Source: Fimbriiglobus sp. (GTDB lineage: Bacteria > Planctomycetota > Planctomycetia > Gemmatales > Gemmataceae). From it: DNA of 49,806 bases. Shown here in pieces: positions 19,281 through 34,616 of this stretch; position 1 is the stretch's first letter; the number at the start of each line of letters is the position of its first letter. The notes under the pieces were generated by a model, which was given only the letters and a program-made list of their open reading frames with translations, searched no databases and was not told the DNA's origin. The DNA lies in contig DASSAT010000395.1 of NCBI GenBank assembly GCA_035699305.1, positions 1 to 49,806 on the forward strand, read 5' to 3'. Position numbers and translations under genes: made by a program.

Positions 19281-19294
19281 GCCGGTGTCCGTCA
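19281..19294 (-). promoter_or_regulatory. Motif copy M1
   Basis: Minus-strand TGACGGACACCGGC, 36 nt upstream of ATG 19244. Confidence 0.7.
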
Positions 19295-19558
19295 CTACCT
19301 CATCCCCTTGATCTCGGCGATCCGCCCAAGCAGGTAGCCCACCTCGTCGCCGTCCAGCCCGGCCACCTCGGCGATCCCGTGGACATTGCGGATCAGGTCG
19401 GCTTCTGCGCCCAGAAACGTCTTGAACGTGACCTTCCCCTCGACCCGAGCGAGCAGGCAGCGGTCGGGGGTGATCCGCATCTCCTCGATCCGGGGCGTGC
19501 CCCAGTCCTCGCCCAGCAAGCTGCCGAGGATGGCCGTGAACATGCCGCCCGTCTCCAC
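19295..19558 (-). CDS. Hypothetical protein (87 aa)
   Basis: Normal composition (MFTAILGSLLGEDWGTPRIEEMRITPDR...). No family recognised. Confidence 0.45.
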   Translation of the reverse strand: METGGMFTAILGSLLGEDWGTPRIEEMRITPDRCLLARVEGKVTFKTFLGAEADLIRNVHGIAEVAGLDGDEVGYLLGRIAEIKGMR

Positions 19559-19703
19559 CTCACGGAGCTACCGGGCGCAGTCCCGCCGGATGTCATCGGG
19601 CTCCCGCACCGCCCCGTCGGCCATGTCCAAACCCCCGCCGCCCACGCCTCGTTGTCCGGGAGATTCTACCACCACGGCATTCCGAACACCGCCCCATCCG
19701 CAC

Positions 19704-19717
19704 TGACGGACACCGGC
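19704..19717 (+). promoter_or_regulatory. Motif copy M2
   Basis: TGACGGACACCGGC, 39 nt upstream of the ardC ATG. Followed by a partial inverted copy CCGGTGGTGT (19719-19728). Confidence 0.7.
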
Positions 19718-19756
19718 ACCGGTGGTGTGACCCAAACAGCGACCGGAGGGACGCCG

Positions 19757-20677
19757 ATGTCCACCCAGACCGAGATCCGCCGCCGGATCAACGACGAGAT
19801 CGTCGCCGCACTGAGCGACCCCACGAAACTCCCGCCGTGGCGGAAGCCGTGGACGTGCTTCGACGCCAACATCGGCCACCCCTGCAACGCCCTGACCAGA
19901 AAGCCGTACCGGGGGATCAACACCCTCATCCTCGGGCTGAGCGCCCAGCGGCGGGGCTTCCAGTCCCGGCACTGGCTGACCTTCCGGCAGGCGAAGGAGA
20001 TGGGCGTCAGCGTCCGTGGCGGCGAGAAGAGTACGCACATCGTCTTCTTCAAGCCGATCCGGGCCGAGCGAACCACCGAAGACGGCGAGGAGAAGCAAGA
20101 CACGTTCTTGCTGATGAGAAGCTACTGCATATTCAACGTGGAGCAGACGACCGGCCTCGACCACCTCCGGGTCGGCAACGCCCCGCTCACTGCTGTTCAG
20201 ATCGAGCAGCGGCACGAGCAGGCCGAAGCCGTGATCGCAGCGACCGGGGCCGACATCCGGCACGGCGGCGACCGGGCCTTCTACAGTTCCACCGGCGACT
20301 ACATCCAGCTTCCGCACCACCGCCAGTTCGAGCGGATCGAAGCGTACTACCAGACGGCGGGTCACGAGCTTTGCCACTGGGCCGAGCACCCGATCCGCCT
20401 GAACTGGGACCGCTCCAAGCCCGAGAACAGCTACGCAATGGGCGAACTCATCGCCGAACTGGGTGGCTGTTACCTGATGGGGGAACTCGGCCTGCCGACC
20501 GGCGAAGACCTCAGCAACCACGCCGCCTACCTCAAACACTGGCTCGCCGGGATGCACAACGACACGAGGTTCCTGTTCCGTGCGGCAGCGCAGGCGAGCA
20601 AGTCCGTGGACTACCTGCTCAGCTTCAGCCGGGCGCAGGATGCCGCCACCGAAGATGACGAAGCTCTGGTCGCCTGA
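19757..20677 (+). CDS. ardC: ArdC-like antirestriction protein (ssDNA-binding N-domain plus zincin metallopeptidase)
   Basis: Start trimmed to MSTQTEIRRRINDEIVAAL. LPPWRKPW, YRGINTLIL and the HExxH motif HELCHW are present. Confidence 0.85.
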   Translation: MSTQTEIRRRINDEIVAALSDPTKLPPWRKPWTCFDANIGHPCNALTRKPYRGINTLILGLSAQRRGFQSRHWLTFRQAKEMGVSVRGGEKSTHIVFFKPIRAERTTEDGEEKQDTFLLMRSYCIFNVEQTTGLDHLRVGNAPLTAVQIEQRHEQAEAVIAATGADIRHGGDRAFYSSTGDYIQLPHHRQFERIEAYYQTAGHELCHWAEHPIRLNWDRSKPENSYAMGELIAELGGCYLMGELGLPTGEDLSNHAAYLKHWLAGMHNDTRFLFRAAAQASKSVDYLLSFSRAQDAATEDDEALVA

Positions 20678-20686
20678 CCATTTCTC

Positions 20687-20718
20687 GCCGGGGTGGTGAA
20701 GCGAACTACCCCGGCTTT
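20687..20718 (+). terminator. Hairpin after ardC
   Basis: GCCGGGGT (20687-20694) pairs with ACCCCGGC (20708-20715), followed by TTT. Weak U-tract. Confidence 0.35.
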
Positions 20719-20725
20719 GCCTCAA

Positions 20726-20739
20726 TGGCGGACACCGGC
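20726..20739 (+). promoter_or_regulatory. Motif copy M3 (orphan)
   Basis: TGGCGGACACCGGC. No credible ORF in the ~200 nt that follow. Confidence 0.6.
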
Positions 20740-20935
20740 ATCGGCGTCGTCCTGATCGGGACGGCCGGGCGGGACGCCCGAGACGACCGAAACGGCACCC
20801 ACAGCTTCCACGACCTGAACGCAGACACGGGCCGCTCCCCCGAACTGGCCAGCGGGCGGCGGGCACCGGCTGCACGACGGGAAGTGAGAGGTGTCCGAGC
20901 GGTCCTCGACGGCGACCCCGCCCGGCGTCGTTTTC

Positions 20936-20949
20936 TGACGGACACCGGC
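20936..20949 (+). promoter_or_regulatory. Motif copy M4
   Basis: TGACGGACACCGGC, 38 nt upstream of ATG 20988. Confidence 0.7.
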
Positions 20950-20987
20950 ATTCACGCCACACCTACCACAACATCGAGGGCCGGCAC

Positions 20988-21587
20988 ATGCCGACGACAC
21001 TGGGCGAACTGGAAGAAGCGGCGAAGCAGGCGGCGGGGAACTGGCGGCGGTTCGAGTCGTTCGTCTGGTGGCGGGCACGTGACATCGAGGACGCTGACGG
21101 GCACGCCATCATCTACACGCACCACAGGGACAGCGGGCTGCTGGACGTGTCGAACGCCGCCGCCATCGCCAAGGCACTCGAACCCTTTACCGAAGGCGAC
21201 GACCCCGACGTGACGTTCGAGAGCCACAACCACTGGGCGGTCGGGCACATCGACGGGTTCTCCGTCCGGGTGTTCCGCAGCGGCAAGATCACCGAGGCGT
21301 TCAAGGTCTACCACGCCCTCGCCGAACGGATAGCGGACTACCCGGTCCTCGACGGGAGCGACTACTCCGAGCGGGAGTACGAAGCCACGCTGGAGAACAT
21401 CGGCCTCGCCGCTTGGCGGTTGAAGCGGGACTTCGCCCTGCCGGACGGCTGGGAGTCCGCCGTCTTCGACTGGCTGTGGCAGCACCGGGACCACGCCCTC
21501 GAAAACGTGGACGACCAAGGCGGATCGCCCGAAGAGTGCGACCTCGAAGCGGCTCTCGCCGCTCTGGGCTACCCACGGGTGGTATGA
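20988..21587 (+). CDS. Hypothetical protein (199 aa)
   Basis: GAGGG SD upstream. Acidic, normal composition. No family recognised. Confidence 0.6.
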   Translation: MPTTLGELEEAAKQAAGNWRRFESFVWWRARDIEDADGHAIIYTHHRDSGLLDVSNAAAIAKALEPFTEGDDPDVTFESHNHWAVGHIDGFSVRVFRSGKITEAFKVYHALAERIADYPVLDGSDYSEREYEATLENIGLAAWRLKRDFALPDGWESAVFDWLWQHRDHALENVDDQGGSPEECDLEAALAALGYPRVV

Positions 21588-21647
21588 CGCCCGGTGCAAT
21601 TTTTGGAACGGCGGTTGAGCGGCCCCGCCCGCCGCCGTCGCTCAGTC

Positions 21648-21661
21648 TGGCGGACACCGGC
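21648..21661 (+). promoter_or_regulatory. Motif copy M5
   Basis: TGGCGGACACCGGC, 42 nt upstream of ATG 21704. Confidence 0.7.
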
Positions 21662-21703
21662 GGGGACGCCGGCTGGACACGACCTCGACGACCGGAGGGC
21701 CGC

Positions 21704-22687
21704 ATGGCCGAGCAGCGACCGTCCAACGAGATCAACGACGTGGCCCCCACGTCGCTCAAGCACATGATCGGGCAGAAGGGCGTCATGGCGCAGGTCGCCG
21801 TCGCCCTCGACGCCGCCTTCGCCGACAACAAGAAGTTCGATTCGTCGCTCTTGGTCGGCCCGCCCGGCTGCGGGAAGAGTCAGACCGCCCGGATCATCGC
21901 CGCCGAGATGGCCACCGACCTGCACGAAGTCCTCGGCCAGAGCGTCGGGAACAGTGCCGACCTGAACGCCCTGTTGCTCTCGGCCAAGGACAAGGACGTG
22001 GTTCACATCGACGAGGCGCACGAGTTGGACAAGGAGTTCCAGACGGCGTTGTATCTGGCTATGGACCAGCGGCGGGTCGTCCTGCAAGCCCGGTCGAAGT
22101 CGGGGCCGCAGTCGATCCCGCTGGCCGACTTCAGCCTGCTGCTCTCGACGACGGACGAATACTGCCTGCTCCAGCCGCTCCGGGACCGGATGCGCCTGCT
22201 CCTCCGGTTCGAGTTCTACGCCGTCGAAGAACTGACGACGCTGCTCCACCAGCGGGCGAATGCGATCAGGTGGCCGATCCATGAGGGACTGCTTCCCCAG
22301 ATCGCCCGGCGGTCTCGGGGCACACCCCGGCTGGCGCTGCGGCTCCTCCAGTCCTGCCGCCGGGTGTGCCGCTCCGTGGGCGAGACCACGATCACCGGCG
22401 GACACCTGCGCCGGGCGTGTGAACTGGAGGGCATCGACGAGATCGGATTGGGGCCGGCCGAGCAGCAGTACCTCCGGGCACTCGCCGAAGGGGCCTCCCG
22501 GCTGAACGTGGTCGCCTCCCTACTCGGGCTCCCGGCGAGGACCGTGAGTCAGGTCGTCGAGCCCTTCCTGCTGCGGGTCGGGCTGATCGTGAAAGACGAC
22601 CAAGGACGGCGGGAACTGACCGCCAAGGGGCGGGGGCACCTGTCGCAATCCGGGCAACTTCGTGACCAGTTGGGGGAGCATTCGTGA
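21704..22687 (+). CDS. RuvB-like AAA+ ATPase (stand-alone paralogue, no ruvA nearby)
   Basis: Start trimmed to MAEQRPSNE, with GGAGGG SD. Walker A GPPGCGKS, Walker B VVHIDEAH, sensor RGTPRLALRLL, and a C-terminal winged-helix EPFLLRVGLIVKDDQGRRELT. Confidence 0.85.
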   Translation: MAEQRPSNEINDVAPTSLKHMIGQKGVMAQVAVALDAAFADNKKFDSSLLVGPPGCGKSQTARIIAAEMATDLHEVLGQSVGNSADLNALLLSAKDKDVVHIDEAHELDKEFQTALYLAMDQRRVVLQARSKSGPQSIPLADFSLLLSTTDEYCLLQPLRDRMRLLLRFEFYAVEELTTLLHQRANAIRWPIHEGLLPQIARRSRGTPRLALRLLQSCRRVCRSVGETTITGGHLRRACELEGIDEIGLGPAEQQYLRALAEGASRLNVVASLLGLPARTVSQVVEPFLLRVGLIVKDDQGRRELTAKGRGHLSQSGQLRDQLGEHS

Positions 22688-23193
22688 CGCCATCGAGCAA
22701 CATTCCGGGGTCGGGCAAGGCGGCGATCAGCATCAAGGAGATGGCCGCTCTGGTGTCCCTCTCCCGCCAGCGGTTCATGCAGTTGGTAAAGGCCGGGGTG
22801 ATGCCCGCCCCGCTCCGGGACGAGGAGACCGGCCGGCCTTACTACACGGAGGAGCTTCAGATCACCTGCCTCGAAGTCCGCCGCCGCAACGTCGGGATCA
22901 ACGGGAAGGTGGTCATGTTCTACGCCCGCCGCACGCCGGCCCAACCGCCGACCACACGGAAGTCGGTGGGGCCGGCAAAGCCGAAGGCCAAGACCGACGA
23001 CCGGTACGCCGACATCGTGGCCGGGCTGCACGGGCTGGGCCTGACCTCGGCGACGGCCGGTCAGGTGGCCGACGCCGTGGCGACCCTGTACCCGGCGGGG
23101 GCGGGCGGGACGGACACCGGCGAGGTGATCCGGCGGGTGTTCCTGCACCTGCGGGGCAAGAACACGACCGGAAATGTGGGCGGTAAAGAGTGA
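22684..23193 (+). CDS. Putative DNA-binding protein (MerR/excisionase-like HTH at N-terminus)
   Basis: GTGA overlap with the RuvB-like stop. ISIKEMAALVSLSRQRFMQLVKAGVMP resembles a short HTH. Confidence 0.45.
   Translation: MTPSSNIPGSGKAAISIKEMAALVSLSRQRFMQLVKAGVMPAPLRDEETGRPYYTEELQITCLEVRRRNVGINGKVVMFYARRTPAQPPTTRKSVGPAKPKAKTDDRYADIVAGLHGLGLTSATAGQVADAVATLYPAGAGGTDTGEVIRRVFLHLRGKNTTGNVGGKE
23108..23121 (+). promoter_or_regulatory. Motif copy M6 (inside a coding region)
   Basis: GGACGGACACCGGC, 133 nt upstream of recombinase ATG 23255. Confidence 0.5.
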
Positions 23194-23254
23194 TTTACCA
23201 ACCCGCCGGCGACAACTTCGTGCAACATTCCCTGCCACTTCGGGGACATAACCG

Positions 23255-24167
23255 ATGAAGAACTGGGCGGAAAAGGTGTTCGACGGCATCCCGGCCGGCC
23301 CGGAGGAGGCCGACCTCGTGCGGGCCTACCTGACGGCCACCGACCTCGCCGCCGGCTCCCGCCGGGGGTTCGCCTTCGACCTGCGAAAGCTAGCGGCGTG
23401 GTTCGTCGAGGCCAACAAGGAGCCGTTCCGGGTGGCCCGAGTCACGACGAGGGACGTGACCGACTTCCGAGACTACCTCCGGCGGGAGAAGGGCCTCGCC
23501 GTGGCGACGGTGAACCGAGCGCTGGTCATGGTCCGGCGGTACTTCGGCTGGCTCGCCGAGCACGGCCACGTGCTCGGCGAGCCAGCCGAAGGGGGTCAAG
23601 GAACTGAAGCGGGTGCAACCGGCCCCGAAGGGGATGGAGCGGAGTCAGGTGCGGAAGCTCCTCCGTGAACTGGAACTGCGGCAGGACATCCGGGCCAGCG
23701 CCGTCTTCCACCTGATGCTCTACACCGGGGCTCGGGTCGGGGACGTGGTGGGCCTCGAACTGGACGACCTGCTCCTCGGCGACCGCAGCGGGTCGGCGGT
23801 CTTCCGCCACGGGAAGGGGAACAAGGAGCGGAGCGTCCCGCTTCCGCTGCCGGCCCGGCGGGCGCTCCGGGCGTACCTCGACACCCGGCCGCCGGTCGAG
23901 TCGAGGAGGGTGTTCGTCGGGGAGCGGGGGCCGCTGACGGACCGGGGCGTCCGTGCGCTGTGCGGCAAGTATTCTGCGGTCTGCGGCTTTCACATTCACC
24001 CGCACCTGTGCCGCCACACGATGGCCCACCAGTACCTCGAAGACAACCGGAACGATCTGGTCGGGCTGGCCCAGCTACTCGGGCACGAGAACCTCTCGAC
24101 CACCTCCCGGTACGCCCAGCGGACCCAAGAGCAGTTGGGGGATGCGGCCGAGAAGCTCAACTACTGA
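23255..24167 (+). pseudogene. XerC/D-type tyrosine recombinase interrupted by a +1 frameshift near 23588-23595
   Basis: ORF 23255-23668 gives the SAM-like N-domain, up to [19 protein letters not shown] 23613-24167 gives the catalytic domain with R (ARVGD), K (HGKGNKER), HxxR (HLCRHT), H and Y ([13 protein letters not shown]). Removing one nt in GCCGAAGGGGG joins them as [19 protein letters not shown]. Confidence 0.8.
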
Positions 24168-24178
24168 CGGACACCGGC
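24165..24178 (+). promoter_or_regulatory. Motif copy M7
   Basis: TGACGGACACCGGC. Its TGA is the recombinase stop codon. 43 nt upstream of TTG 24222. Confidence 0.7.
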
Positions 24179-24221
24179 GACGAGAACGCCGGGGCCGACG
24201 ACCAACTTCGCTTCGGCGACG

Positions 24222-24851
24222 TTGATCGGAGCGGCGGGGCACACGGTCCCGCACACCCCCGGCGTCTCACCAGTGGGGTCGCCGATGACAACGTGGTGCG
24301 AGCGGCGGGGGCAGGTCGAGGTCGGGGTGATCGAGCACGAGGGCCACTGCTTCGCCGCCCTCGGGGCAAGCGTCGTGGGCCGACACGTCACGGGCTACAC
24401 CGGCCTCACGACCGGCGAAATCTTCCTGACGACGTGGTGCGGACGAACCATGCTGGCCTGCCGGTCAGAGGTGGTCGAGGAGTACCCGGACGGCTCGCTG
24501 GCGATCCTGTTCCGGCTGACGAAGGGCCGGTTCATCGCCGGATACGCCCTCGGCGAGACGGGGATGCTCTTCCGGGGCGAGCTTCTCACCGGCTGCACCG
24601 ACGACGAGGCCCGCCGGACCGCCCGGCGGGTCGCCGACCACCTCGCCGAACTGGACGCCGCAGACCAAGCGAACTTCGACACGGACCAGACAGAGGACGA
24701 GCCGATGCTGGACATCGAGTACCGGTGCCCCGAGTGCGGCCACGAGTGGCAGGAGCAGTGGACGAGCGCCTGCGACTCCGAGTGCCCGAACTGCGGCACC
24801 GAGGACATCACGGCTCTGTCGTGGGACGAGCGGTCTGACGAAGAGGGCTGA
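24222..24851 (+). CDS. Hypothetical protein with C-terminal zinc-ribbon (CPECG...CPNCG)
   Basis: 209 aa from TTG 24222; ATG 24285 is an alternative start. Ends in YRCPECGHEWQEQWTSACDSECPNCGTEDI. Confidence 0.55.
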   Translation: MIGAAGHTVPHTPGVSPVGSPMTTWCERRGQVEVGVIEHEGHCFAALGASVVGRHVTGYTGLTTGEIFLTTWCGRTMLACRSEVVEEYPDGSLAILFRLTKGRFIAGYALGETGMLFRGELLTGCTDDEARRTARRVADHLAELDAADQANFDTDQTEDEPMLDIEYRCPECGHEWQEQWTSACDSECPNCGTEDITALSWDERSDEEG

Positions 24852-24852
24852 C

Positions 24853-24866
24853 TCACGGACACCGGC
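24853..24866 (+). promoter_or_regulatory. Motif copy M8 (orphan, between convergent genes)
   Basis: TCACGGACACCGGC, 2 nt after the stop of 24222-24851 and 8 nt before the stop of the minus-strand sigma gene. Confidence 0.55.
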
Positions 24867-24873
24867 ACCCGCC

Positions 24874-25449
24874 TCAGACGGGCTCGTCACAGTCCGGGCA
24901 CACCGTCCGACCCGGCCTCGGGTCGCAGTCCGTCAGGTTCCCCCGCCGGTCGAAGTGGAACCGGCAGCACCCGTCGAGCACGTCTTTGAGCATCGCTCGC
25001 CCCCGCTGGATGCGGGACTTCGCCCCCGACAGCGACAGCCCGAGCCGGTCGGCCACCTGCTGCTGGGTGTGGCCCTCGATCTCCGACAGCCGCACCGCCT
25101 CGGCGTACCCCTCGGGCAACTGCCGGACCAGTTCGCCCAGCCACTCCCCGGCCCGGCAGAGCAGTTCGCCCGTGCGGCCCTCGGCCGAGGGCGGGTCGTC
25201 CACCAGTGGGGCCTCGGCCCCCGGCCCCCGGCGGTGGTGGTCGTGGACCACGTTCCGGGCGATCCGGTACACCCACGCCGCCAGCCGGTCCCCGTCGCCG
25301 AGGCCGGCGACGCTGCGGTGAATCCGCACGAACGTCTCTTGGAGCAGGTCGTCGGCGGTGTGGTCGTCGGCGACCCGGCGGCGGATGAACCGCCGCAGGT
25401 CCGCACTCAGTTGCCCCCACACCGCCTCGGTCGATGGCTGACCCGACAT
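24874..25449 (-). CDS. ECF-type sigma-70 factor with Cys-rich C-terminal extension (SigZ-like)
   Basis: 191 aa. Region 2 DDLLQETFVRIH, region 4 GHTQQQVADRLGLSLSGAKSRIQRGR, then CCRFHFD...C...CPDC. Confidence 0.8.
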   Translation of the reverse strand: MSGQPSTEAVWGQLSADLRRFIRRRVADDHTADDLLQETFVRIHRSVAGLGDGDRLAAWVYRIARNVVHDHHRRGPGAEAPLVDDPPSAEGRTGELLCRAGEWLGELVRQLPEGYAEAVRLSEIEGHTQQQVADRLGLSLSGAKSRIQRGRAMLKDVLDGCCRFHFDRRGNLTDCDPRPGRTVCPDCDEPV

Positions 25450-25470
25450 CAGACTGCCTCGTCGGTTGGC

Positions 25471-27364: not shown

Positions 27365-27372
27365 GGGGAACG

Positions 27373-28216: not shown

Positions 28217-28254
28217 AGTGGGGCGGGGCCATAATCGAAACACCGGAGGACGCC

Positions 28255-28500: not shown

Positions 28501-28509
28501 GCCAACAAC

Positions 28510-28523
28510 AAGCGGTCTCCGGC
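28510..28523 (+). promoter_or_regulatory. Degenerate motif copy (2 core mismatches)
   Basis: AAGCGGTCTCCGGC, 46 nt upstream of ATG 28570. The spacing matches the canonical copies. Confidence 0.35.
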
Positions 28524-28569
28524 TGCGTGCAGGGCCGGGGATCGCCTATCCCCTTGAAGGAGGCACACG

Positions 28570-28854
28570 ATGACCGACCACCCATGTTCGACGACGCTCA
28601 CGGACGCACACCCCGATCACGAAGGGAGGCTCCCGATCCGGCTCGCCGTGTCCCCGAACGGCGTGTCGCTGTACGCCGAGGGCTACGGCGACATGGGTAC
28701 GATGCCGGGCCACGGCACGCCCGTATTCGTCGAGTTGTACAGGGGCGAACTCCGGGTGATCGTCTGGGCGGACATCAGCCAAGAAGACCCGACGCACGTG
28801 ATCTCGTTGGCTGGCGCACGGGAGGATCGACGCCAGCCGGACGGCGAACAGTGA
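28570..28854 (+). CDS. Hypothetical protein (94 aa)
   Basis: AGGAGG SD 7 nt upstream. Confidence 0.5.
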   Translation: MTDHPCSTTLTDAHPDHEGRLPIRLAVSPNGVSLYAEGYGDMGTMPGHGTPVFVELYRGELRVIVWADISQEDPTHVISLAGAREDRRQPDGEQ

Positions 28855-28881
28855 CCACCAACAGCGGAAGGGAGTCGAAGG

Positions 28882-29064
28882 ATGGAGAAGGTCGTGATCG
28901 TGACCGTCGAGGGCGGCGTGGTCCAGCATGTCGAGTGCCCGGCCGGCGTGAAGGTCGTCGTCAAGGATTACGACGCCGAGGGCGTCGAGGCCGACCTGCT
29001 GTCGGCGGACGACCACGGCGGCGAGTACGTCGAGAGCGTCTGGGAGGGCGACCCGGCCGGATGA
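28882..29064 (+). CDS. Hypothetical protein (60 aa)
   Basis: MEKVVIVTVEGGVVQHVECPAGVKVVVKDYD... GAAGG SD upstream. The stop is the TGA of motif M14. Confidence 0.45.
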   Translation: MEKVVIVTVEGGVVQHVECPAGVKVVVKDYDAEGVEADLLSADDHGGEYVESVWEGDPAG

Positions 29065-29075
29065 CGGACACCGGC
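29062..29075 (+). promoter_or_regulatory. Motif copy M14
   Basis: TGACGGACACCGGC, 44 nt upstream of ATG 29120. Confidence 0.7.
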
Positions 29076-29119
29076 GATTTGGTCGTGGCGATGACCACGA
29101 CCAACGACCGGAGAAAAGG

Positions 29120-29671
29120 ATGCACACATCCGCCGATCACCGCCTGAACGGGCAACTCCTGCCGCAGACCACGAGGAGCAAGGCTAAGTCCAAGCCGACC
29201 AAGACGAAGCCCCGGTGGAACGCCGACCGGGTGCTGTACTGGAGCGCCACCGCCGCCCCGTGGGGTCTCGCCATTTTGCTCCTCATGGTCTCCATGCCTC
29301 ACCTCGCCGGCGGGTTCCAAACCGTCTGCCACTGCGGGCCGCTGGCCGGGTGGCTACTGGCCGTCGCCATCGACACCGCCCAAGTGGTGGCGAAGCTGCA
29401 AACCACGCTGGCCAAGCGGTACACCACCACCCCGTCCGTCCGGTGGACCTCGACCGGGATCATCGCCGGAACCATCCTGATGTCGATGGCGCTGAACGTG
29501 ATGGCCTTCCTCGCCGGGGCGAGGACAGTGACCGGGACTGTGCTGGCGTGGGTCGCCGGGGTGATGCTGCCGCTGCTGGTGCTCGCCCTGAGTTACACCG
29601 GCTCGGCCTTCGCTCTGGCGAAGGTCAGGAAGGAGGCGAAGGTCAAGGTGAAGGGCGGGCGGCCGAGGTGA
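29120..29671 (+). CDS. Integral membrane protein (about 4 TM helices, basic N-terminus)
   Basis: 183 aa. Hydrophobic segments WGLAILLLMVSMP, LAGWLLAVAIDTAQVV, GIIAGTILMSMALNVMAFL, VLAWVAGVMLPLLVLAL. Confidence 0.6.
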   Translation: MHTSADHRLNGQLLPQTTRSKAKSKPTKTKPRWNADRVLYWSATAAPWGLAILLLMVSMPHLAGGFQTVCHCGPLAGWLLAVAIDTAQVVAKLQTTLAKRYTTTPSVRWTSTGIIAGTILMSMALNVMAFLAGARTVTGTVLAWVAGVMLPLLVLALSYTGSAFALAKVRKEAKVKVKGGRPR

Positions 29672-29678
29672 CACGGCG

Positions 29679-29708
29679 GGCGTCGGCGAGGTTGGTCTCG
29701 CCGACGCC
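29679..29708 (+). terminator. GC hairpin after the membrane-protein gene
   Basis: Perfect 12-bp stem GGCGTCGGCGAG / CTCGCCGACGCC with loop GTTGGT, 8 nt after the stop. No U-tract. Confidence 0.4.
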
Positions 29709-30099
29709 CCGGTCTCGATCTCGCCGTATTCGAGCGGGCTCGGCGACCCGACCCAGATCCCGCCAGCAACGACCGTGTGACACTTCTCGAAACCCAGAAA
29801 CCCTTCGTGGTTCCGCCTCGGGCGGGTTTCCCGGATGGCCTCCCCACACGGCTCCCGTGCCCACCTTTTTGTTTCTCGACATCTCCACGATCCCTCGGCT
29901 CAAGCTGAAGCCTCCGGCAGAACGGCTTCTCTTTTTCAGCACGCCGCCGAAAAAATCGCCGGGCTCCTTGCGCTCCACCGAGCTGGCGGCGAGTCCTCAC
30001 TTCACTCTCGTCCCCACGAGGTCCAGACCCCGGACCCCCTCCACCCGTCCCTGCCGCCGGACTGGCCCCCTCCGGTACGGCCGACTGGTAGCACCGGCG

Positions 30100-30420
30100 T
30101 CACTTCGGCTTCGTCTTGATGACCGTGACAGCCCGGATGGCAGTGAGTGGGATACGAGTCTCCAGCAACCCCTCGTTGTCCGTGACGACGATGAAGTCAT
30201 CGCCGATCTCGGCAACCTTGTGAGTGGCTTCGGCCACGTCTTGGAGCACATTGATCTCCCAGAGCGATCCCTTCTCCCGGAGCGTGACCGCCTGCCCGGC
30301 TTTGAGCGGGGACAGCACGGTGCGGCGAGCCGCCGGTGCCGGCTGGGAGGTTGCCGGGGGCAGCGACAGGCCGAGGCCGAGAGCGGCGACCGCCAGCACG
30401 GCGAGGGTGGTTGGTCTCAT
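30100..30420 (-). CDS. Small secreted protein (106 aa)
   Basis: Signal-like MRPTTLAVLAVAALGLGLSLPPATSQPAP. Confidence 0.55.
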   Translation of the reverse strand: MRPTTLAVLAVAALGLGLSLPPATSQPAPAARRTVLSPLKAGQAVTLREKGSLWEINVLQDVAEATHKVAEIGDDFIVVTDNEGLLETRIPLTAIRAVTVIKTKPK

Positions 30421-30818
30421 GTGCGGCTCATTTCGTCGAGTTCGGCCCAGTGGATGTTCACGAGGCCGAGGCTACCCTCCACCGGCCCGTGACGCTTCTG
30501 GGGCGGGTTCACGAGTAATCTGCACGACCTCGACAGCCACAACTGCAAGTCACGCAGGCCGACCGGCGTGTCCGAGTGAAGGTCCACGATGACCGGGGCG
30601 ACGAACCGCCGGTGCGGCTTGTTCCCGTACTCCAGCATGAGGAGGCGCTGCATCTCGGCGCACGCCTCGTTGGCGTCCGAGTAGAGCGCCGCCTCCCGCT
30701 GCGTGGCGCTCCACCCAGTTCCACTCCAATACCGCAACCAGCCATCGGAAATCACCCACCTCGGATGCTCGGGGGTGCCGGCTGCGTGTAGGCTCAGGTA
30801 GATCGGTCGGCGGTCCAC
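30417..30818 (-). CDS. Hypothetical protein (133 aa)
   Basis: Normal composition. 4-nt overlap with the downstream gene. Confidence 0.55.
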   Translation of the reverse strand: MDRRPIYLSLHAAGTPEHPRWVISDGWLRYWSGTGWSATQREAALYSDANEACAEMQRLLMLEYGNKPHRRFVAPVIVDLHSDTPVGLRDLQLWLSRSCRLLVNPPQKRHGPVEGSLGLVNIHWAELDEMSRT

Positions 30819-30821
30819 GGG

Positions 30822-31046
30822 CTACTCCTCGTTGAACGTGTCGGCGGTCTCGAAGAGCGTGACGAGATCCGCCGCCAAGCGGTACGCCTGCTCTTTGGGC
30901 ACTGCGATGTTGGTGGGCGCATACGAGCCGGCCGGGTCGAGCCGGACCGACAGGATGGCGACCGGCCGGCCCTCGACACGGCCGGCCGTCACCCCGAGCA
31001 ACTCGGCCTCCCGCACCATGACGACGTGCTTCGGCGGTCGGTCCAC
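30822..31046 (-). CDS. Hypothetical protein (74 aa)
   Basis: Start set to GTG 31046, with GGGAGG 7 nt upstream and motif M15 47 nt upstream. ATG 31019 is an alternative. Confidence 0.45.
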   Translation of the reverse strand: MDRPPKHVVMVREAELLGVTAGRVEGRPVAILSVRLDPAGSYAPTNIAVPKEQAYRLAADLVTLFETADTFNEE

Positions 31047-31073
31047 GTCACAACCTCCCGGTCTGCGGTGAGC

Positions 31074-31104
31074 GAAAACGGACACCGGTGCCTGCCGGTG
31101 TCCG
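31074..31104 (-). terminator. Intrinsic terminator of the WD40 gene, built from two inverted motif cores
   Basis: The minus strand reads CGGACACCGG-CAGGCA-CCGGTGTCCG followed by TTTTCGC. 10-bp perfect stem. Confidence 0.55.
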
Positions 31105-31107
31105 CCA
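31094..31107 (-). promoter_or_regulatory. Motif copy M15
   Basis: Minus-strand TGGCGGACACCGGC. An inverted partner (plus-strand CGGACACCGG) lies at 31079-31088. Confidence 0.7.
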
Positions 31108-31128
31108 GAGCCCTCCTCCCCGTGCCCG

Positions 31129-32625
31129 CTACTCGCCGCCCGTGCCGCCCATCATCTCCAGCAGGTCGTCGAGCCCGAGCAGGATGGTCTCCGTCATGTC
31201 CCAGAGCACGACCGACCGGTCCTCCGACCCGGTTGCGATCCACCGGCCGGCCGGGGAGAAGGCGACGGCATAGACTGCCGCCCCGTGCCCCCGGAGGGTG
31301 CCGACCAGCCGCTCGGTCTGGACGCTCCACAGCCTCGCCGACTTGTCCGCACCGGCCGTGGCGACGAGGTGCGCCCCCCGCTTCTGTGGCAGGTCGGGGT
31401 ACGGGAACGGCGACACCGCCACGTCCCAGATCACCTCCCCGTGGGCCGTCCAGTAGCGGGGCTGGTGCGGGAACGGCCGGCCGTCCGCCACGTCCCACAC
31501 GTACAGCCGCCCGTCCACCACACGGCCGTCCTCGTTGCTCTCGTCGTCGTCGATCCCGAGGTCGGCGAACAAGCCCTTCGGGACGGCGACCCGGCCCTCC
31601 CCGATGTTGCCGCAGGCGACGGCCCCGATCCCGGCCGCCCGGCGGGGGCGGTCGCCGAAGTTCATCCGCCCGGTCCCCAGATCCCACAGCGACAGATACC
31701 GGTCGGGCGAGGCGGTCAGCAGGTGCGCCCCGGTGGACCGGACGAGGGCGGCGGACCGGACCGGCCTCCCGGCCTCGATGACCGCCCGCTCCCGGCCCGA
31801 GTCGAGATCCCAGAGCCGGATCGTCCCGTCCTCACCGGCCGTCACCAGCGTCCGCCCGTCCGGCAGGAAGCACACTTCGTTGATCGCCTGCCGATGCCCG
31901 GCCAAGTGTGAAGCAGGCCGGCCGGTCGTCACCTCCCACAGATGGGCGCTGCCGTCCCGACTGCCGCAGGCGACGAAGCGGCCGTCCGGGGAGAAGGCCA
32001 CCTCCGAGATCTTGTCCGAGCCGCCGGTGAAGCAACCCACCTGAACACGGGCCTCGACGTTCCACAGCCGCACCGTGCGGTCGAACCCGCCGGACGCCAG
32101 CACCGACCCGTCCGGCGAGAACGCCACGCAGGACACCCCGGCCGTGTGGCCCAGCAGCCGGGCCGCTGGCGACAAGGTGGGTGCGGTGGCTTCGAGCGGG
32201 TCGCCCTCCGGCTCCTCACCCCGCCGATCCCCGCACCCGGCGAGGAACTGTCGGACCTCGACCCAACACCACTCTTCGGGGTCGAAGACCAGATCGTCGG
32301 CCCCGAGTTCGCCCGAGCCGGCCATCCGCCGGACCTCGCCGGCGGTGTACGGCCCCTTCCTGTCGCTCGCCTTCAGCCAGAGCCACCTCGCCTCCGGGGT
32401 GACTTGGTTGGGCTCACTGAACTCGACGGCCGTGGGAATGTTCGGCGAGAGGAGTTCGTAGACCCCGCTGATGGTGCTCGCCTCCCGCCACCCCCAGTCG
32501 GCGTCGGCCCGGCGCAAGAGGTCGTCGGGCTTGAGATCCTTAGCCACGATGGCGAGCCGTAGGGCCAGATTGCTAAGCGGCTTGGCCCCGGCTACGTGGA
32601 GCACGAACCAGAGGTCGTCTGACAT
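31129..32625 (-). CDS. WD40-repeat protein with N-terminal GYF_2-like module
   Basis: 498 aa. Repeats such as GHTAGVSCVAFSPDGSVLASGGFDRTVRLWNV. The N-terminal region has WLWLKASDRKGPYTAGEVRRMAGSGELGADDLVF. Confidence 0.85.
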   Translation of the reverse strand: MSDDLWFVLHVAGAKPLSNLALRLAIVAKDLKPDDLLRRADADWGWREASTISGVYELLSPNIPTAVEFSEPNQVTPEARWLWLKASDRKGPYTAGEVRRMAGSGELGADDLVFDPEEWCWVEVRQFLAGCGDRRGEEPEGDPLEATAPTLSPAARLLGHTAGVSCVAFSPDGSVLASGGFDRTVRLWNVEARVQVGCFTGGSDKISEVAFSPDGRFVACGSRDGSAHLWEVTTGRPASHLAGHRQAINEVCFLPDGRTLVTAGEDGTIRLWDLDSGRERAVIEAGRPVRSAALVRSTGAHLLTASPDRYLSLWDLGTGRMNFGDRPRRAAGIGAVACGNIGEGRVAVPKGLFADLGIDDDESNEDGRVVDGRLYVWDVADGRPFPHQPRYWTAHGEVIWDVAVSPFPYPDLPQKRGAHLVATAGADKSARLWSVQTERLVGTLRGHGAAVYAVAFSPAGRWIATGSEDRSVVLWDMTETILLGLDDLLEMMGGTGGE

Positions 32626-32756
32626 CGGAGCACCCTCTGTGAGCCCGGCCCTGCACCGGCAGGGCTGGGCCTACCTGAAGAGCGAAATCGGGGCGGAAAC
32701 CGGTTCACGAGCCGTTCGTGGACGATTCTCCCGGCTCAGTCACGGCAAGTGGATAA

Positions 32757-32770
32757 CACCGGTGTCCGCT
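32757..32770 (-). promoter_or_regulatory. Motif copy M16
   Basis: Minus-strand AGCGGACACCGGTG (the ACACCGGTGT part is palindromic), 131 nt upstream of WD40 ATG 32625. Confidence 0.5.
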
Positions 32771-32850
32771 ACCGAGCGACGAACTGGTCGTGGGCGATCC
32801 CACAACGGTACGACCGTAGTGATCGAGCAGTCGAGCCAGCCGACAGCGGC

Positions 32851-34386
32851 TTAGCGCTTGGCCGTGATGAGTAAAGTGCGGTCCTGCGTCGGTTGCACCC
32901 GCAGGTGCAGAGAGCCGTCTCGAAGGTCGTACCGCCAGCGGCGGTACTGAGCCCGTAACGGGGCGGGAGCGCCCAACTTCTCGGGATCTTGAGAGTCGCT
33001 AGCCGGTCGCCCGAACGACTCGAAGAACTGTTCCCCGCTGTCTGCCACGAACGTAGCTATCCCGGCACGAGGATCAAACTGAAGCTGGAGGTGCGGGCGG
33101 TTGCGCATCATGATGTAGTGCATCTTGGCGATGAACTCGGCGATTGTGCCGCCCATCCACGGCTGGTCGTCCACATCGAGGTAATACCGCCTGTCCGTTC
33201 TCGCCTCGATGTAGGCGAGTCGGTGCTTGCCGACCGGCCTACCGTCCTCGAACAGTCCGTGCGCCCCCGACTTGCCGTCTTGCTCCCAGTCGGCGTAGTA
33301 GCCATGCCGGGCTCCGTCCTTACGTGGGTCGAACCGCTTCCGGCCCCCGTTGTCCCACCACTCTTTTTGTGGCCCATGCCTCTTCCCCTCGACCCACGTG
33401 TACTCCAACTCCCTCGTGCCGTCCTCGTACCACCCCTCGGCCCGCCCGTGCCGCTTCCCGTGGACATAGGCGATGACCGAACTCGGCTTGCCGTTCTTGT
33501 GCCACGACCGCCAGACACCGTGTTCCTTCTGGTCCACGAAACAGGTCTCTTGGGATTTCGTCCCATCCTCGTAGTAGTACGTGATGACCCCGTGTGTCCT
33601 GTCGTGCAGCACCGTCCCTTCTCGGAACTTCCGACCTGCCATCTTGTCGTACCAAGTAACGAACTTGCCGTGGGCGACGAACTTGCCGCTGGAGTCGATG
33701 TACCCCTCCTCGGTCTCAATCTTCCCGATCAAATCCCTCGACCCGGATTTGATCTCTCGGTCCCTCGTCGTGGGGCGAGCGCCAGCGGGTAGGGTGTCGT
33801 AGTCGTCCTTCGAGAAGTCATAGGTGTAATCGACTTTGGAGAAGTCGGGCACCTCGACCGCATACCGGGGGTCTTCGGTCGGAAAGCTGCCGTCCGCCCC
33901 GTCCGTGTCCCCGGCTCCCCTCAGCCGGTCGGCCTCGGCCAGTTCCTTCTTGGTCGCCTCCTGTTGGCGGGAGCCGAACAGGAACAGCGCCCCGAAGCCC
34001 CCGCAGCACATCACGAAGCAGAGCCCGACTCCCGAGGCCAGCAGGACGACTTTCTTCCGCTTCGCCGCCTGCTTGGCCTCGTCCCCGTCGCCCGACTTCC
34101 GGGAGGCCAGCGGGACCACCGGCTTCCGTTTCGCCGTCGCCTGCATCGCCTCGTCATCTTCGCCCACCTTCCGGGCCGGCCGGTCGGCATCCGCCGGCAC
34201 CGGCGGTGGGGCGGGGAACAGCCCCTTGATGTCCTTCGCCCGCCGCACCGTCTCCACGTCCCCCCGGCGGACCTGATCGTCGGGCTTCAACTTCCCACTC
34301 GCCGCCAACTGCTTGAGTTGCCGGCCGGTGTACGGCCCCTCCTCCCTATCCCCCCGCACGACGAACCACTGCTGCGCCAGCGCCAT
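32851..34386 (-). CDS. GYF_2 (DUF4339)-domain membrane protein with MORN/YwqK-type repeats
   Basis: Start trimmed to MALAQQWFVVRGDREEGPYTGRQLKQLAASGKLKPDDQVRRGD. One TM segment (VVLLASGVGLCFVMCCGGFGALFLF). Repeats such as HGVWRSWHKNGKPSS, HGRAEGWYEDGTRE, HGPQKEWWDNGG. Confidence 0.75.
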   Translation of the reverse strand: MALAQQWFVVRGDREEGPYTGRQLKQLAASGKLKPDDQVRRGDVETVRRAKDIKGLFPAPPPVPADADRPARKVGEDDEAMQATAKRKPVVPLASRKSGDGDEAKQAAKRKKVVLLASGVGLCFVMCCGGFGALFLFGSRQQEATKKELAEADRLRGAGDTDGADGSFPTEDPRYAVEVPDFSKVDYTYDFSKDDYDTLPAGARPTTRDREIKSGSRDLIGKIETEEGYIDSSGKFVAHGKFVTWYDKMAGRKFREGTVLHDRTHGVITYYYEDGTKSQETCFVDQKEHGVWRSWHKNGKPSSVIAYVHGKRHGRAEGWYEDGTRELEYTWVEGKRHGPQKEWWDNGGRKRFDPRKDGARHGYYADWEQDGKSGAHGLFEDGRPVGKHRLAYIEARTDRRYYLDVDDQPWMGGTIAEFIAKMHYIMMRNRPHLQLQFDPRAGIATFVADSGEQFFESFGRPASDSQDPEKLGAPAPLRAQYRRWRYDLRDGSLHLRVQPTQDRTLLITAKR

Positions 34387-34472
34387 GTTCTCCCCCCGTG
34401 TGTCGGCCGTTCTGTCCGGTCGCCCCACTGAGCGAGACCCGGCCCGGAACCGGCTCACGAACACGGCCCGGT

Positions 34473-34486
34473 GCGGGTGTCCGCCA
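34473..34486 (-). promoter_or_regulatory. Motif copy M17 (1 mismatch)
   Basis: Minus-strand TGGCGGACACCCGC, 86 nt upstream of ATG 34386. Confidence 0.45.
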
Positions 34487-34602
34487 GAGCCGGCGTGAGC
34501 CGGTTTCCGCACGGGTCTCGCTCATCCGGGCGGGAGAGGCCGAGGGCCGAGGTGGAGGGACTGATCCCCGTTCTCCCCCAGCGGGTCACGGACGACGGCC
34601 GG

Positions 34603-34616
34603 TGGCGGACACCGGC
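34603..34616 (+). promoter_or_regulatory. Motif copy M18
   Basis: TGGCGGACACCGGC, only 18 nt upstream of ECF sigma ATG 34635. Preceded by a degenerate copy TCACGGACGACGGC (34587-34600). Confidence 0.6.

Follow-up and report, generated by a model that had tools for sequence, protein, structure and literature searches.

ECF sigma factors usually regulate their own genes and have their regulators and targets encoded alongside them; ECF groups linked to kinases are on record from planctomycetes (PMC7826278, PMC8999054). The stoperators of Cluster A mycobacteriophages (L5, Bxb1, TipsytheTRex) are asymmetric, 13-14 bp long, present in about 20-30 copies per genome and oriented with transcription in short intergenic spaces, and their motif varies among relatives (PMC9283540, PMC6550527). 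We compared these and other systems to a locus in a stretch of 49,806 nucleotides from Fimbriiglobus sp. (Gemmataceae), the whole of which is here called the window. As in kinase-activated ECF regulons (ECF43 EcfP/EcfK; planctomycete ECF59-62 and ECF217), the gene for an alternative sigma factor adjoins that of a Hanks-type kinase. Also as in these regulons, the locus lacks an anti-sigma factor, a repeated motif precedes the sigma factor's own gene and nearby putative targets, and a strong upstream box is followed by a short downstream box (PMC7826278, PMC8999054). Unlike ECF regulons, which consist of few operons, 15-18 mobile-element genes are tagged individually here, and the copy at the sigma gene lies too near the ATG for a leadered transcript.

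The motif shares with Cluster A stoperators its asymmetry, length, orientation, intergenic siting and variation between relatives. It differs in that the host belongs to another phylum, the carrier, an integrative element, has no phage structural genes, the copies number about one per gene and keep a fixed distance to the start codon, with a second box, terminators precede several copies, and a cognate two-domain repressor was not found. Phage promoter sets (T7/SP6-type, the T4 middle MotA box, T4 late) similarly consist of an element-specific sequence that recurs in many copies and varies concertedly from one relative to the next, but a phage polymerase, a MotA/AsiA-like or a gp55-like factor was not identified here, and the motif clusters on no viral contig. 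Cluster K start-associated sequences and integron attC arrays also place a short sequence at the 5' end of small co-oriented ORFs, with an adjoining recombinase and modules bounded by the repeat. However, the motif described here is located 25-35 nt 5' of the SD and not at the SD as in Cluster K, and unlike in integrons, attC-type structure and IntI are absent and the recombinase type is interchangeable.

In total, 18 exact copies of the core CGGACACCGG were identified in the window, 14 on the forward and 4 on the reverse strand, whereas dinucleotide shuffles gave an expectation of 0.8 (largest 4). They span only positions 19282-34615, and the remaining 34.5 kb of the window contain zero core copies, in agreement with the sequence-only reading, which had described a 14-nt motif confined to a block of about 15 kb (19.28-34.62 kb). 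Its division into 16 invariant copies and two with one mismatch is also borne out: the 11-mer CGGACACCGGC occurs in 16 exact copies, every one inside the block, and its final C is replaced by T in the core copies at 31079 (+) and 32759 (-). The count of 18 is thus exact, but the list includes the 31079 (+) copy, which is merely the 3' arm of a hairpin formed with the functional-looking copy at 31095 (-). The degenerate copy reported at 28510 is real (Table 1). Outside the block, copies of CGGACACCGGC with one mismatch number four, which is the chance level, and two-mismatch matches to the motif are spread over the whole window at near chance level. Unrelated loci from metagenomes and viruses, each picked because the 14-mer was present and totalling 1.75 Mb, contained no more than two core copies apiece. 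The motif is asymmetric, non-palindromic and 13-14 bp long; its TGA is part of the motif and serves as a genuine stop codon in only two copies. Some copies in the window overlap stop codons, and copies are kept even within coding sequence.

Table 1. Motif copies and associated features in the block and at its right edge (19281-36973).
Feature	Positions	Strand	Remarks
Motif copy TGACGGACACCGGC	19281-19294	-	37 nt before Cdd1/HhH-like gene (18936-19244, -)
Motif copy	19704-19717	+	40 nt before ArdC start (19757-20677)
Motif copy without ORF after it	20726-20739	+	Strong hairpin 5'; GTCCTGATCGGGAC 9 nt later
Invariant quasi-palindrome GTCCTGATCGGGAC	20749-20762	+	Once per element
Degenerate copy CGGCGGGCACCGGC	20857-20870	+	Exact copy in relative L012
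Motif copy	20936-20949	+	39 nt before 199-aa signature protein p200 (20988-21587)
Motif copy	21648-21661	+	43 nt before RuvB-like gene (21704-22687)
Motif copy within 3' end of p169 (Xis/AlpA-like) gene	23108-23121	+	134 nt before integrase start
Motif copy overlapping integrase stop codon	24165-24178	+	Before Zn-ribbon protein gene (24222/24285-24851)
Orphan motif copy	24853-24866	+	L012 counterpart precedes + strand gene
Cargo without motif copies: second ECF sigma and glyoxalase	24874-26025	-	Absent from L012
Motif copy	26167-26180	+	52 nt before 140-aa gene (26232-26654)
Motif copy after hairpin	26696-26709	+	47 nt before 202-aa gene (26756-27364)
Motif copy inside upstream gene's 3' end	27315-27328	+	45 nt before p86 start (27373-27672)
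Motif copy, 27 nt past terminator (27718-27743 and T-run)	27770-27783	+	45 nt before 116-aa gene (27828-28178)
Motif copy in loop of 11-bp GC hairpin	28203-28216	+	39 nt before p81 (28255-28500)
Degenerate copy AAGCGGTCTCCGGC	28510-28523	+	46 nt before ATG 28570 (94-aa gene)
Motif copy overlapping upstream stop codon	29062-29075	+	45 nt before 183-aa gene (29120-29671)
Motif copy (feature 31076-31107)	31094-31107	-	48 nt before 74-aa gene (30822-31046, -); 5' arm of perfect 12-bp hairpin and TTTTC, directly past WD40 stop
Motif copy ending in T	32758-32771	-	133 nt before WD40 start (31129-32625, -)
One-mismatch copy	34473-34486	-	Faces GYF/MORN gene (32851-34386/34464, -); in conserved inverted repeat AACCGGCTCAC...GTGAGCCGGTT
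Motif copy, presumed autoregulatory	34603-34616	+	19 nt before ECF sigma start codon
ECF sigma factor (PF07638), candidate motif reader	34635-35222	+	SETDDV at sigma-2.2 position
Ser/Thr protein kinase with Laminin_G_3 domain	35219-36973	+	Presumed sigma activator (PMC8999054); start overlaps stop of ECF sigma gene

On both strands, each copy with a downstream gene faces that gene. Twelve copies, for which a fixed distance of 36-51 nt had been claimed, have the core end 37-52 nt before a start codon preceded by an SD (37, 40, 39, 43, 52, 47, 45, 45, 39, 45 and 48 nt, plus 45 nt for the 86-aa gene with its start set at 27373). The exceptions already noted were measured at 134 nt for the integrase, 133 nt for the WD40 gene and only 19 nt for the ECF sigma gene. 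Measured from the motif anchor, start-codon distances in the window and in loci L012, L303, L302, L007 and L010 show a sharp peak at 42-53 nt. Copies of the motif also precede the first genes of divergent units, where there has to be a promoter; ArdC heads the rightward array, and no gene upstream of it is co-directional.

The consensus of the cis-unit is T-R-R-C-GGA(C/T)ACC-n-GC-(T/G)(A/G), of which YACC-n-GC-TA is common to all lineage versions. Among 85 instances pooled from six independent lineages, a second box of low information, C-R-K, was identified at a fixed offset of +14 to +16, counted from the A of ACC (C at +14 in 46 of 85, p = 6e-6; purine at +15 in 70 of 85, p = 1.5e-8). The steepest fall in G content in these instances is at +22 and is followed by a G-poor, C/A-rich leader; the A+C fraction of the downstream tract is 0.67-0.79, as compared to 0.49 in control genes. 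TAnnnT was never seen in the pooled copies. The order of features, from a strong upstream box through a short second box to a transcribed-looking leader, corresponds to the layout of an ECF promoter. Counting against such a promoter, the upstream element of about 16 nt exceeds the usual length of a -35 element, and GGAC is separated from the C-R-K box by 18 nt, whereas the GGAAC-to-CGT spacing of canonical ECF promoters is about 5 nt longer. The hairpins or terminators that had been claimed before three copies (20687, 26667, 27718) are present 5' of the copies at 20729, 26699 and 27773 (z = -4.5, -2.8 and -5.5, respectively), and the terminator at 27718-27743 is the one canonical case among the hairpins tested. 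Terminator-like hairpins are located immediately 5' of at least four copies, a position that fits a promoter, and another copy is itself the 5' arm of a terminator.

ArdC, p200 (about 200 aa), a RuvB-like protein, an Xis-like protein, a recombinase and many small ORFs are encoded in the block, which is an integrative element. Related elements, which the sequence-only reading had proposed to look for, are found across the Planctomycetota together with the motif system. Their core gene order is syntenic, ArdC and p200 are the only universal genes, and anti-defence-type genes (ArdC, NADAR) are carried. The motif is present at orthologous positions in at least eight lineages and is kept where the flanks diverge, as at the RuvB-like gene, where the copy is preserved in L012 though the flanks differ. 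Counterparts of the copy at 23108, either embedded or stop-adjacent, were found in L012, L010, L007 and L003. Each lineage has its own variant of the motif at the same positions and with a shared core, and such variation at orthologous sites combined with retention of the motif points to one trans-acting reader per lineage. The recombinase is of the tyrosine type in the window, L012 and L007 and of the serine type in L004, while the motif system persists. Homology among relatives breaks off at motif copies: blocks in L007 and L010 begin and end at copies, and in the window the gene after the copy at 24853 has been replaced by cargo (24880-26165) that begins 13 nt past the motif and has copies at both boundaries, with homology to L012 restarting exactly at the copy at 26167-26180. 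All comparative evidence agrees with the earlier view of a mobile element made up of mostly single-gene units that have one promoter or operator sequence in common; promoter and operator are weighed against each other below.

Of three proteins proposed as readers, only the ECF sigma factor at 34635-35222 survives. The other ECF sigma factor (24874-25422/25449) was dropped because it lies in a 1.3-kb insertion that is missing from L012, where the motif is identical; it is lineage-specific cargo outside the motif system. The HTH protein p169 (22684-23193) has no counterpart in L004, and L007 and L010, which have one motif in common, differ in its recognition helix; it is an AlpA/Xis-like protein sited before the integrase.

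In the window's clade, the sigma factor at 34635-35222 is most likely the motif reader, as supported by association. Linkage of its gene to the element was seen in all contigs sampled from this clade, and the same motif variant precedes the gene by 19-24 nt in four loci (the window, L298, L297 and L300). The copy at the sigma gene in L297 is GGATACC, which matches the array of that locus. In L298, the GYF/sigma/kinase module keeps its motif copies, and the element array L303 is located on the same contig, with at least 11 kb of motif-free genes between them. Counting against this reader, sigma region 4.2 is identical between the GGACACC and GGATACC lineages, and in L001-L011 no sigma factor of this family was found up to 10 kb from the element. 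The ATG of the sigma gene is located 22-29 nt past the anchor, no further downstream than the inferred start site, and the gene's own copy therefore fits promoter geometry poorly and would need a leaderless mRNA or another role; in L297 and L298, a good SD lies between anchor and ATG. Two genes in L005 present the same problem, at 27-28 nt. The sigma factor might also be merely another tagged target.

What the sequences establish is the cis anatomy, its conservation, its concerted variation from lineage to lineage and its physical linkage with the sigma/kinase module. We give about an even chance to the reading in which a private promoter of the ECF-sigma type, read by the sigma factor at 34635-35222, has the 14-nt motif as its high-information upstream element. 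One promoter tag would then precede almost each gene or gene module of this planctomycete integrative element, and a full unit would consist of an often present terminator-like hairpin, the motif, C-R-K, a switch at about +22, the C/A-rich leader, an SD and a start codon at +42 to +53. That transcription initiates at the tagged sites, where exactly it starts and which protein reads the tag are what we infer. The reader in the window's clade would be the kinase-coupled ECF sigma factor at the right edge of the element, the gene of which bears the same tag. Activation of the sigma factor by the kinase would cause all tagged genes to fire together, including those for ArdC, the recombination functions, the small ORFs and the sigma factor itself. 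If so, the entire element would be switchable by one signal.

The main rival is a stoperator-like operator array, which is possible if rather doubtful. Here, the motif would be the asymmetric site of an element- or host-encoded repressor, or possibly activator, which would shut off or gate the individual genes, both by acting at promoters and by blocking elongation, similar to the Cluster A mycobacteriophage repressor. Many copies per element of an asymmetric 13-14 bp motif, oriented with transcription in short intergenic spaces and in some cases on stop codons or in coding sequence, are consistent with such an array, and the lineage-specific variants resemble repressor/stoperator co-evolution (PMC9283540, PMC6550527). 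The short distances at the sigma gene and in L005, awkward for the promoter model, would also be tolerated. However, a conserved candidate repressor is absent; ArdC and p200 are the sole universal proteins, p169 does not follow the motif, and a roadblock requires neither the sharp peak in start-codon distance nor the fixed second box. Copies are also found ahead of the first genes of divergent units, and the upstream terminators make a roadblock redundant and would leave the downstream genes without a visible promoter.

It is improbable that the motif is a promoter read by a trans factor of another replicon, such as a helper-phage RNA polymerase or sigma factor, with the element as an infection-triggered satellite. 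The lack of a reader gene up to 10 kb away in lineages outside the Gemmataceae, the anti-defence-type genes and the presence of one promoter per gene would suit such a system, and the variants in L007 and L004 loosely resemble SP6/K11-type single-subunit polymerase promoters. Against this, scanning IMG/VR completely with the 15-nt and the 16-nt version recovered singletons only and no clusters of either variant in phage genomes, a single-subunit polymerase gene is present in none of the loci, and the link to the sigma module provides a simpler reader.

An RNA-level element, that is a processing site, a 5' stabiliser or translational control by SD pairing, is very improbable. The strictly strand-specific orientation, the C/A-rich, strand-biased tract 3' of the motif and the ability of several window copies to pair with the next 10 nt fit this explanation, but pairing between motif and SD is not above that of shuffled motifs (z = -0.5 to -2.6), the cross-lineage swap matrix tracks GC content, hairpin potential is not kept beyond the window's lineage, and Rfam gave no matches. 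An invariant 14-nt sequence for which a covarying partner is absent indicates protein-DNA recognition, and an intercistronic role in RNA is at odds with the terminators 5' of copies.

Also highly improbable is an integron-like recombination site, with copies as cassette junctions for the element's recombinase. The recombinase gene lies within the array, and differences in gene content start and stop at copies. However, the motif system outlasts the change from tyrosine to serine recombinase, an attC-like imperfect inverted repeat is absent, the motif is 5' of each ORF at a fixed start distance in a syntenic core, and homologous exchange between related elements also yields breakpoints at conserved 14-mers. 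Finally, a functionless dispersed repeat (REP/MITE-like) or a composition effect, as the GC-rich genome and the near-chance two-mismatch matches might suggest, is effectively already refuted by exact copies that are restricted to one block, non-palindromic, gene-oriented, kept inside coding sequence and shared by distant lineages at orthologous positions, where their sequence has changed in concert.

The quasi-palindrome GTCCTGATCGGGAC is located 12-13 nt past the ACC of a lineage-specific motif copy in the window, L012-14, L001, L002, L007 and L010.

The motif core, CGGACACCGG (10 nt), was found 18 times in the 49.8-kb window, as compared to 0.8 expected copies and a maximum of four in shuffled sequences, and the 11-mer formed by the core plus its final C is found in exact form 16 times, never outside the block. 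No core copy was identified in the remaining 34.5 kb of the window, and the four one-mismatch copies outside the block are at chance level. The sequence-only reading had described an array restricted to one block and absent elsewhere in the window, and both claims stand, while the spread-out generic repeat named as its alternative does not fit the window, where the motif is confined to the block and oriented with the genes. Unrelated metagenome and viral loci covering 1.75 Mb, each picked because the 14-mer was present, contain at most two core copies per locus. The earlier description was accurate, except that one plus-strand copy is no more than the partner arm in a hairpin that a minus-strand copy forms.

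Twelve copies end 37-52 nt 5' of a start codon that bears a Shine-Dalgarno (SD) sequence on the same strand, in agreement with the near-fixed distance claimed previously (genes were called by GC3 frame bias in window DNA of 67% GC). The WD40 and integrase genes have a copy 133-134 nt upstream, and the kinase-linked ECF sigma gene has one 19 nt upstream. The leading TGA is part of the motif and serves as a true stop codon in just two copies.

Positions of the motif copies, genes and compared regions (L-numbers are loci from other genomes, metagenomes or viral contigs)
Feature	Locus	Position (strand)	Remark
Core copies	window	19282-34615 (14 on +, 4 on -)	all core copies of the window
Degenerate copies	window	20857, 28510, 34473 (-)	positions equivalent to those of intact copies
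Hairpin-arm copy	window	31079 (+)	second arm only of the hairpin built on 31095
Copy after WD40 gene	window	31095 (-)	5' arm of 12-bp hairpin, then TTTTC, right after the WD40 stop
Copies directly 3' of terminator-like hairpins	window	20729, 26699, 27773	
Hairpin with T-run	window	27718-27743	
Single weak sigma-70 consensus match	window	28206	overlaps a copy
GTCCTGATCGGGAC	window	20749-20762	
GTCCTGATCGGGAC	L012; L001; L002; L007; L010	9764; 1155; 3388; 8737; 8735	
RuvB-like gene	window	21704-22687	complete ATPase gene
Diverged RuvB-like segment	window; L012	21578-22554; 10597-11557	divergence begins right after the 21648 motif copy
p169 gene	window	22684-23193	start overlaps the RuvB-like stop
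Tyrosine recombinase gene	window	23255-24167	split in two frames; extra G in G-run near 23590 (G5, G4 in L012)
Other ECF sigma gene	window	24874-25422 (or 25449)	
Other ECF sigma and glyoxalase-family genes	window	24874-26025	opposite strand
Segment replacing 437 bp of L012	window	24880-26165 (-)	1.3 kb
140-aa gene	window	26232-26654	in-frame TGA at codon 47; Trp in L007 and L012
GYF/sigma divergent region	window; L298; L297	34450-34530; ~9790-9880; ~9780-9870	
Kinase-linked ECF sigma gene	window	34635-35222	PF07638; stop overlaps the start of the kinase gene
BREX-type defence genes	window	5521-10800	BrxC-like (1222 aa), BrxA
Genes with gCAACCATGA context	L015	7650-10650	six genes

The block encodes a Cdd1/HhH-like protein, ArdC, p200 (199 aa), a RuvB-like ATPase, the HTH protein p169 (169 aa), a tyrosine recombinase and a Zn-ribbon protein, as well as a series of small ORFs that match no family. 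To their right are located genes for WD40 and GYF/MORN proteins, along with a gene pair for an ECF sigma factor and a Ser-Thr kinase. The order ArdC, p200, RuvB-like, p169 and recombinase, then p86 and p81 (proteins of 86 and about 81 aa), is syntenic across lineages, and in the variant element L004 a NADAR gene is present and the recombinase is of the serine type. Homologs of p200 number more than 1,800; all 11 genomic relatives fetched belong to the Planctomycetota, and one p169 homolog is from Gemmata sp. JC717. A known plasmid or phage was rejected as the identity of the element, since plasmid and phage records gave no match at the DNA level and Streptomyces phages gave weak partial protein matches only. 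Neither Rfam families nor tRNAs were found in the window.

The protein p169 combines an AlpA/Xis-type HTH with a RuvA-domain-III-like tail, for which the match is weak. Its gene is placed between the overlapping RuvB-like gene and the integrase gene just downstream, which suggests that p169 may be an Xis-like adaptor that recruits a RuvB-type motor in excision or integration. The recombinase gene is intact in the close sister element L012 (303 aa), and its frameshift in the window is to be read either as a sign of a pseudogene or as an assembly error in the homopolymer. Together with the in-frame TGA of the 140-aa gene, it indicates that this copy of the element may be decaying or defective, despite which the motif copies of the window are all intact. 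Anti-restriction-type genes are carried on the element, ArdC in the window and the NADAR-domain gene in L004, and BREX-type defence genes are located about 8 kb to its left.

In every related locus, the equivalent positions 5' of the same genes are occupied by a short, heavily repeated sequence particular to that locus. The variant is (T)GRCGGACACCGGC in the window, L012 and L303, TGACGGACACCnGCTA in L302, AGCGGATACCCGCTA in L297, TAAGGACACCnnCTA in L004, TTAGGCACCTGCTAG in L007 and L010, GTTGTACCTG in L005, TTGTACAC in L008 and TGAGACACCCGCTT in L001, and the lineage strings expected in further genomes are TAGGCACCTGCTA (CP043547.1) and CGGACACCGGC (assemblies GCA_037025265.1 and GCA_037024415.1). 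The variants listed all align on YACC-n-G-C-T/A-A. At the level of sequence, the observation is confirmed and extends to a phylum-wide element family in the Planctomycetota, of which the motif is a trait that changes in concert. The motif is kept between the window and L012 where the intergenic surroundings have diverged, and a copy 5' of the recombinase gene is retained even when embedded in the p169 coding sequence. Since the motif is uniform inside an element and different between lineages, the pattern implies one putative trans-acting reader per lineage.

With offsets counted from the A of ACC, the start codon is located at +42 to +53 in six loci. In 85 instances from six independent lineages, a second box at a fixed position is visible as a C at +14 (46 of 85, p=6e-6), a purine at +15 (70 of 85, p=1.5e-8) and a K at +16. 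The G content falls most sharply at +22. Between this point and the SD, the sense strand is poor in G and rich in C and A; its A+C content is 0.67-0.79, as compared to 0.49 in the regions 5' of 26 genes of the window that do not belong to the element. This strand-specific compositional bias suggests that the tract is transcribed, and transcription could, as judged from the sequence, start anywhere from about +22 to +31. The hairpins or terminators previously noted in front of some copies were also recovered. The predicted typical unit thus consists of a terminator, the motif, a short second box, a leader, an SD and a gene.

A quasi-palindrome of 14 nt, GTCCTGATCGGGAC, is invariant and present once per element, between ArdC and p200, always 12-13 nt after the ACC of a lineage-specific motif copy and with no ORF downstream. 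The approximately 40 nt that follow it are partly conserved too (nnCCGnG..GGGAC). Its possible roles are those of a small RNA driven by the motif or of a site in the DNA, for instance an origin, an oriT or a recombination site.

Only ArdC and p200 occur in all motif-bearing loci. As a reader of the motif, p200 was rejected: its AlphaFold model (pLDDT 80) has no fold neighbour in the PDB, its invariant HxH-type residues look enzymatic, and relatives of it occur in viral contigs without the motif system. The proteins p86 and p81 have no DNA-binding features, and a divergent repressor to the left of ArdC was discarded because the neighbours there vary from lineage to lineage. Two readers proposed in the sequence-only reading also fell away, the HTH protein p169, which is Xis/AlpA-like, absent from L004 and differs in its recognition helices between L007 and L010 that share one motif, and the ECF sigma factor encoded next to the glyoxalase-family gene, which lies in a cargo insertion absent from L012 although L012 has the same motif variant.

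The kinase-linked ECF sigma factor is a better candidate. ECF sigma factors as a rule control their own genes and are encoded close to their regulators and targets (PMC7826278), and for the kinase-linked groups, several of which are planctomycetal, phosphorylation is the presumed mode of activation (PMC8999054). In the clade of the window, homologs of this sigma factor share contigs with the element, always in the arrangement GYF(-)/sigma(+)/kinase(+), and this module flanks the element in the window, L297, L298+L303 and L299+L302. As in an autoregulated ECF regulon, a motif copy precedes the ATG of the sigma gene by 19-24 nt in the window, in L298, in L297 (GGATACC, as in the L297 array) and in L300, where the sigma factor is 66% identical and GGACACC is located 19 nt before the ATG. 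Of the other modules, L299 is interrupted by an insertion, and the case of L301 is ambiguous. The L298 module has two outward-facing exact copies of the window type, and at least 11 kb of genes lacking the motif lie between it and the L303 array, which has the same variant and is on the same contig. At the sigma-2.2 position, the sigma factor contains the sequence SETDD, which includes a Ser and a Thr. Co-encoding of sigma factor and regulator near the targets is seen in the clade of the window; in the distant lineages L001-L011, no member of this sigma family was found at 10 kb or less from the element. Covariation of region 4.2 with the motif variant was rejected, as region 4.2 is the same in the GGACACC and GGATACC lineages and does not follow the C/T difference. 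In this clade, the kinase-linked sigma factor probably reads the motif, but it could instead be a tagged target.

ECF promoters consist of a GGAAC-like -35 element and a short CGT-like -10 element at fixed spacing. Here, the upstream box is GGA(C/T)ACC and the C-R-K box at +14 to +16 follows with a spacing about 5 nt below the canonical ECF spacing; other placements of the -10 are possible. The copy of the sigma gene itself fits the promoter model poorly because the ATG is at +22 to +29, with a good SD in between in L297 and L298, and two L005 genes at +27/28 show the same misfit.

The main rival is an operator array of the type of the stoperators in Cluster A mycobacteriophages, which are likewise asymmetric sites of 13-14 bp, many per element, oriented with transcription and intergenic (PMC9283540, PMC6550527). 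Lineage specificity and copy number also fit such an array, but with p169, p86 and p81 ruled out the element has no candidate cognate repressor, and the fixed spacing, second box and upstream terminators are left without explanation. The cognate repressor of Cluster A stoperators has an HTH and a second DNA-binding domain, whereas no element protein here matches that and covaries with the motif. Binding at such stoperators halts elongation by the polymerase in a manner that depends on their orientation. A host-encoded or non-homologous reader for an operator array is possible.

The remaining rivals were rejected. In sigma-70 promoters, TAnnnT is located 16-18 nt beyond a TTGACA-like box. Such a promoter with GGACAC as the -35 is not consistent with the absence of TAnnnT between motif and SD in approximately 45 canonical instances, some of them from loci with 53-56% GC, and the AT bump is just modest. 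Integron attC sites are imperfect inverted repeats of about 57-141 bp, 3' of promoterless ORFs and used by an IntI-type integrase, whereas the motif is 14 nt long without a conserved inverted repeat, sits 5' of each ORF at a fixed distance and is accompanied by a recombinase of tyrosine or serine type depending on the lineage. A functionless REP/MITE-type repeat would not explain a motif that, within the loci examined, is not palindromic, is oriented with genes and is limited to the element and the sigma module. Pairing of motif and SD in RNA was no better than in shuffled controls, for a helper phage with the same promoter IMG/VR gave only singletons and no motif clusters, no gene for a T7/SP6-type single-subunit RNA polymerase was found in any examined locus, and a 23-copy motif in the viral loci L019 and L020 is a pentapeptide-repeat coding artefact. 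The literature search on the motif strings and on this gene set in planctomycetes gave nothing relevant.

Homology between the window and L012 stops 13 nt past one motif copy and restarts exactly at the next, on either side of the segment with the other ECF sigma and glyoxalase-family genes, which is flanked by motif copies, contains none and is missing from L012. Homology blocks between L007 and L010 likewise begin and end at motif copies. This coincidence indicates that the tags delimit exchangeable modules, a pattern that could have arisen as a side effect of homologous exchange, the motif being the only sequence conserved between genes. In the comparison of the window with L012, the RuvB-like gene has diverged far more than its neighbours, with no blastn alignment as compared to 81-90% identity in the flanks, as if the allele of one module had been replaced.

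From the cis architecture and the comparative evidence, both of which are solid, we infer a mechanism in which the motif is most likely an ECF-type promoter tag before nearly every gene, in this clade probably read by the kinase-coupled sigma factor at the edge of the element. A more far-reaching reading, which we consider improbable, is a self-contained, kinase-gated private transcription system whose promoter tags double as exchange junctions for plug-and-play gene cassettes. A sensor Ser/Thr kinase would activate the element-linked ECF sigma factor, which would fire approximately 18 individually tagged genes, including the anti-defence-type ArdC and NADAR. The tags would be the junctions at which modules are swapped between elements, so that the shared promoter, and not an attC site, would be the point of exchange and a captured gene would be wired into the regulon at once. 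If the reading as an ECF-type promoter tag is right, this would be a clear case of a mobile element in which a single kinase-controlled alternative sigma factor governs each gene, and the element would be silent until one signal causes everything to be expressed together. For the kinase-linked ECF sigma families of the Planctomycetota, which are large and uncharacterised in their promoters and signals, it would also supply a target promoter and a regulon that can be tested directly, and it would define a widespread planctomycete element family (more than 1,800 signature-protein homologs). By means of the lineage-specific tag, the boundaries of an element, its cargo and the exchange of modules can be read from the sequence alone, and the tag could serve as an orthogonal promoter set for planctomycete genetic tools.

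Two other repeated sequences were observed. In L015, an IMG/VR contig with a p200 homolog, six genes have in common the conserved context gCAACCATGA, which spans the start codon in a manner similar to start-associated sequences and has no relation to the motif. The GYF/sigma divergent region contains a conserved inverted repeat, AACCGGCTCAC ... GTGAGCCGGTT, with arms about 35-38 nt apart that bracket the motif copy facing the GYF gene and with a conserved TCGCTCA nearby, and this repeat may be an extra operator specific to the GYF/sigma/kinase module.
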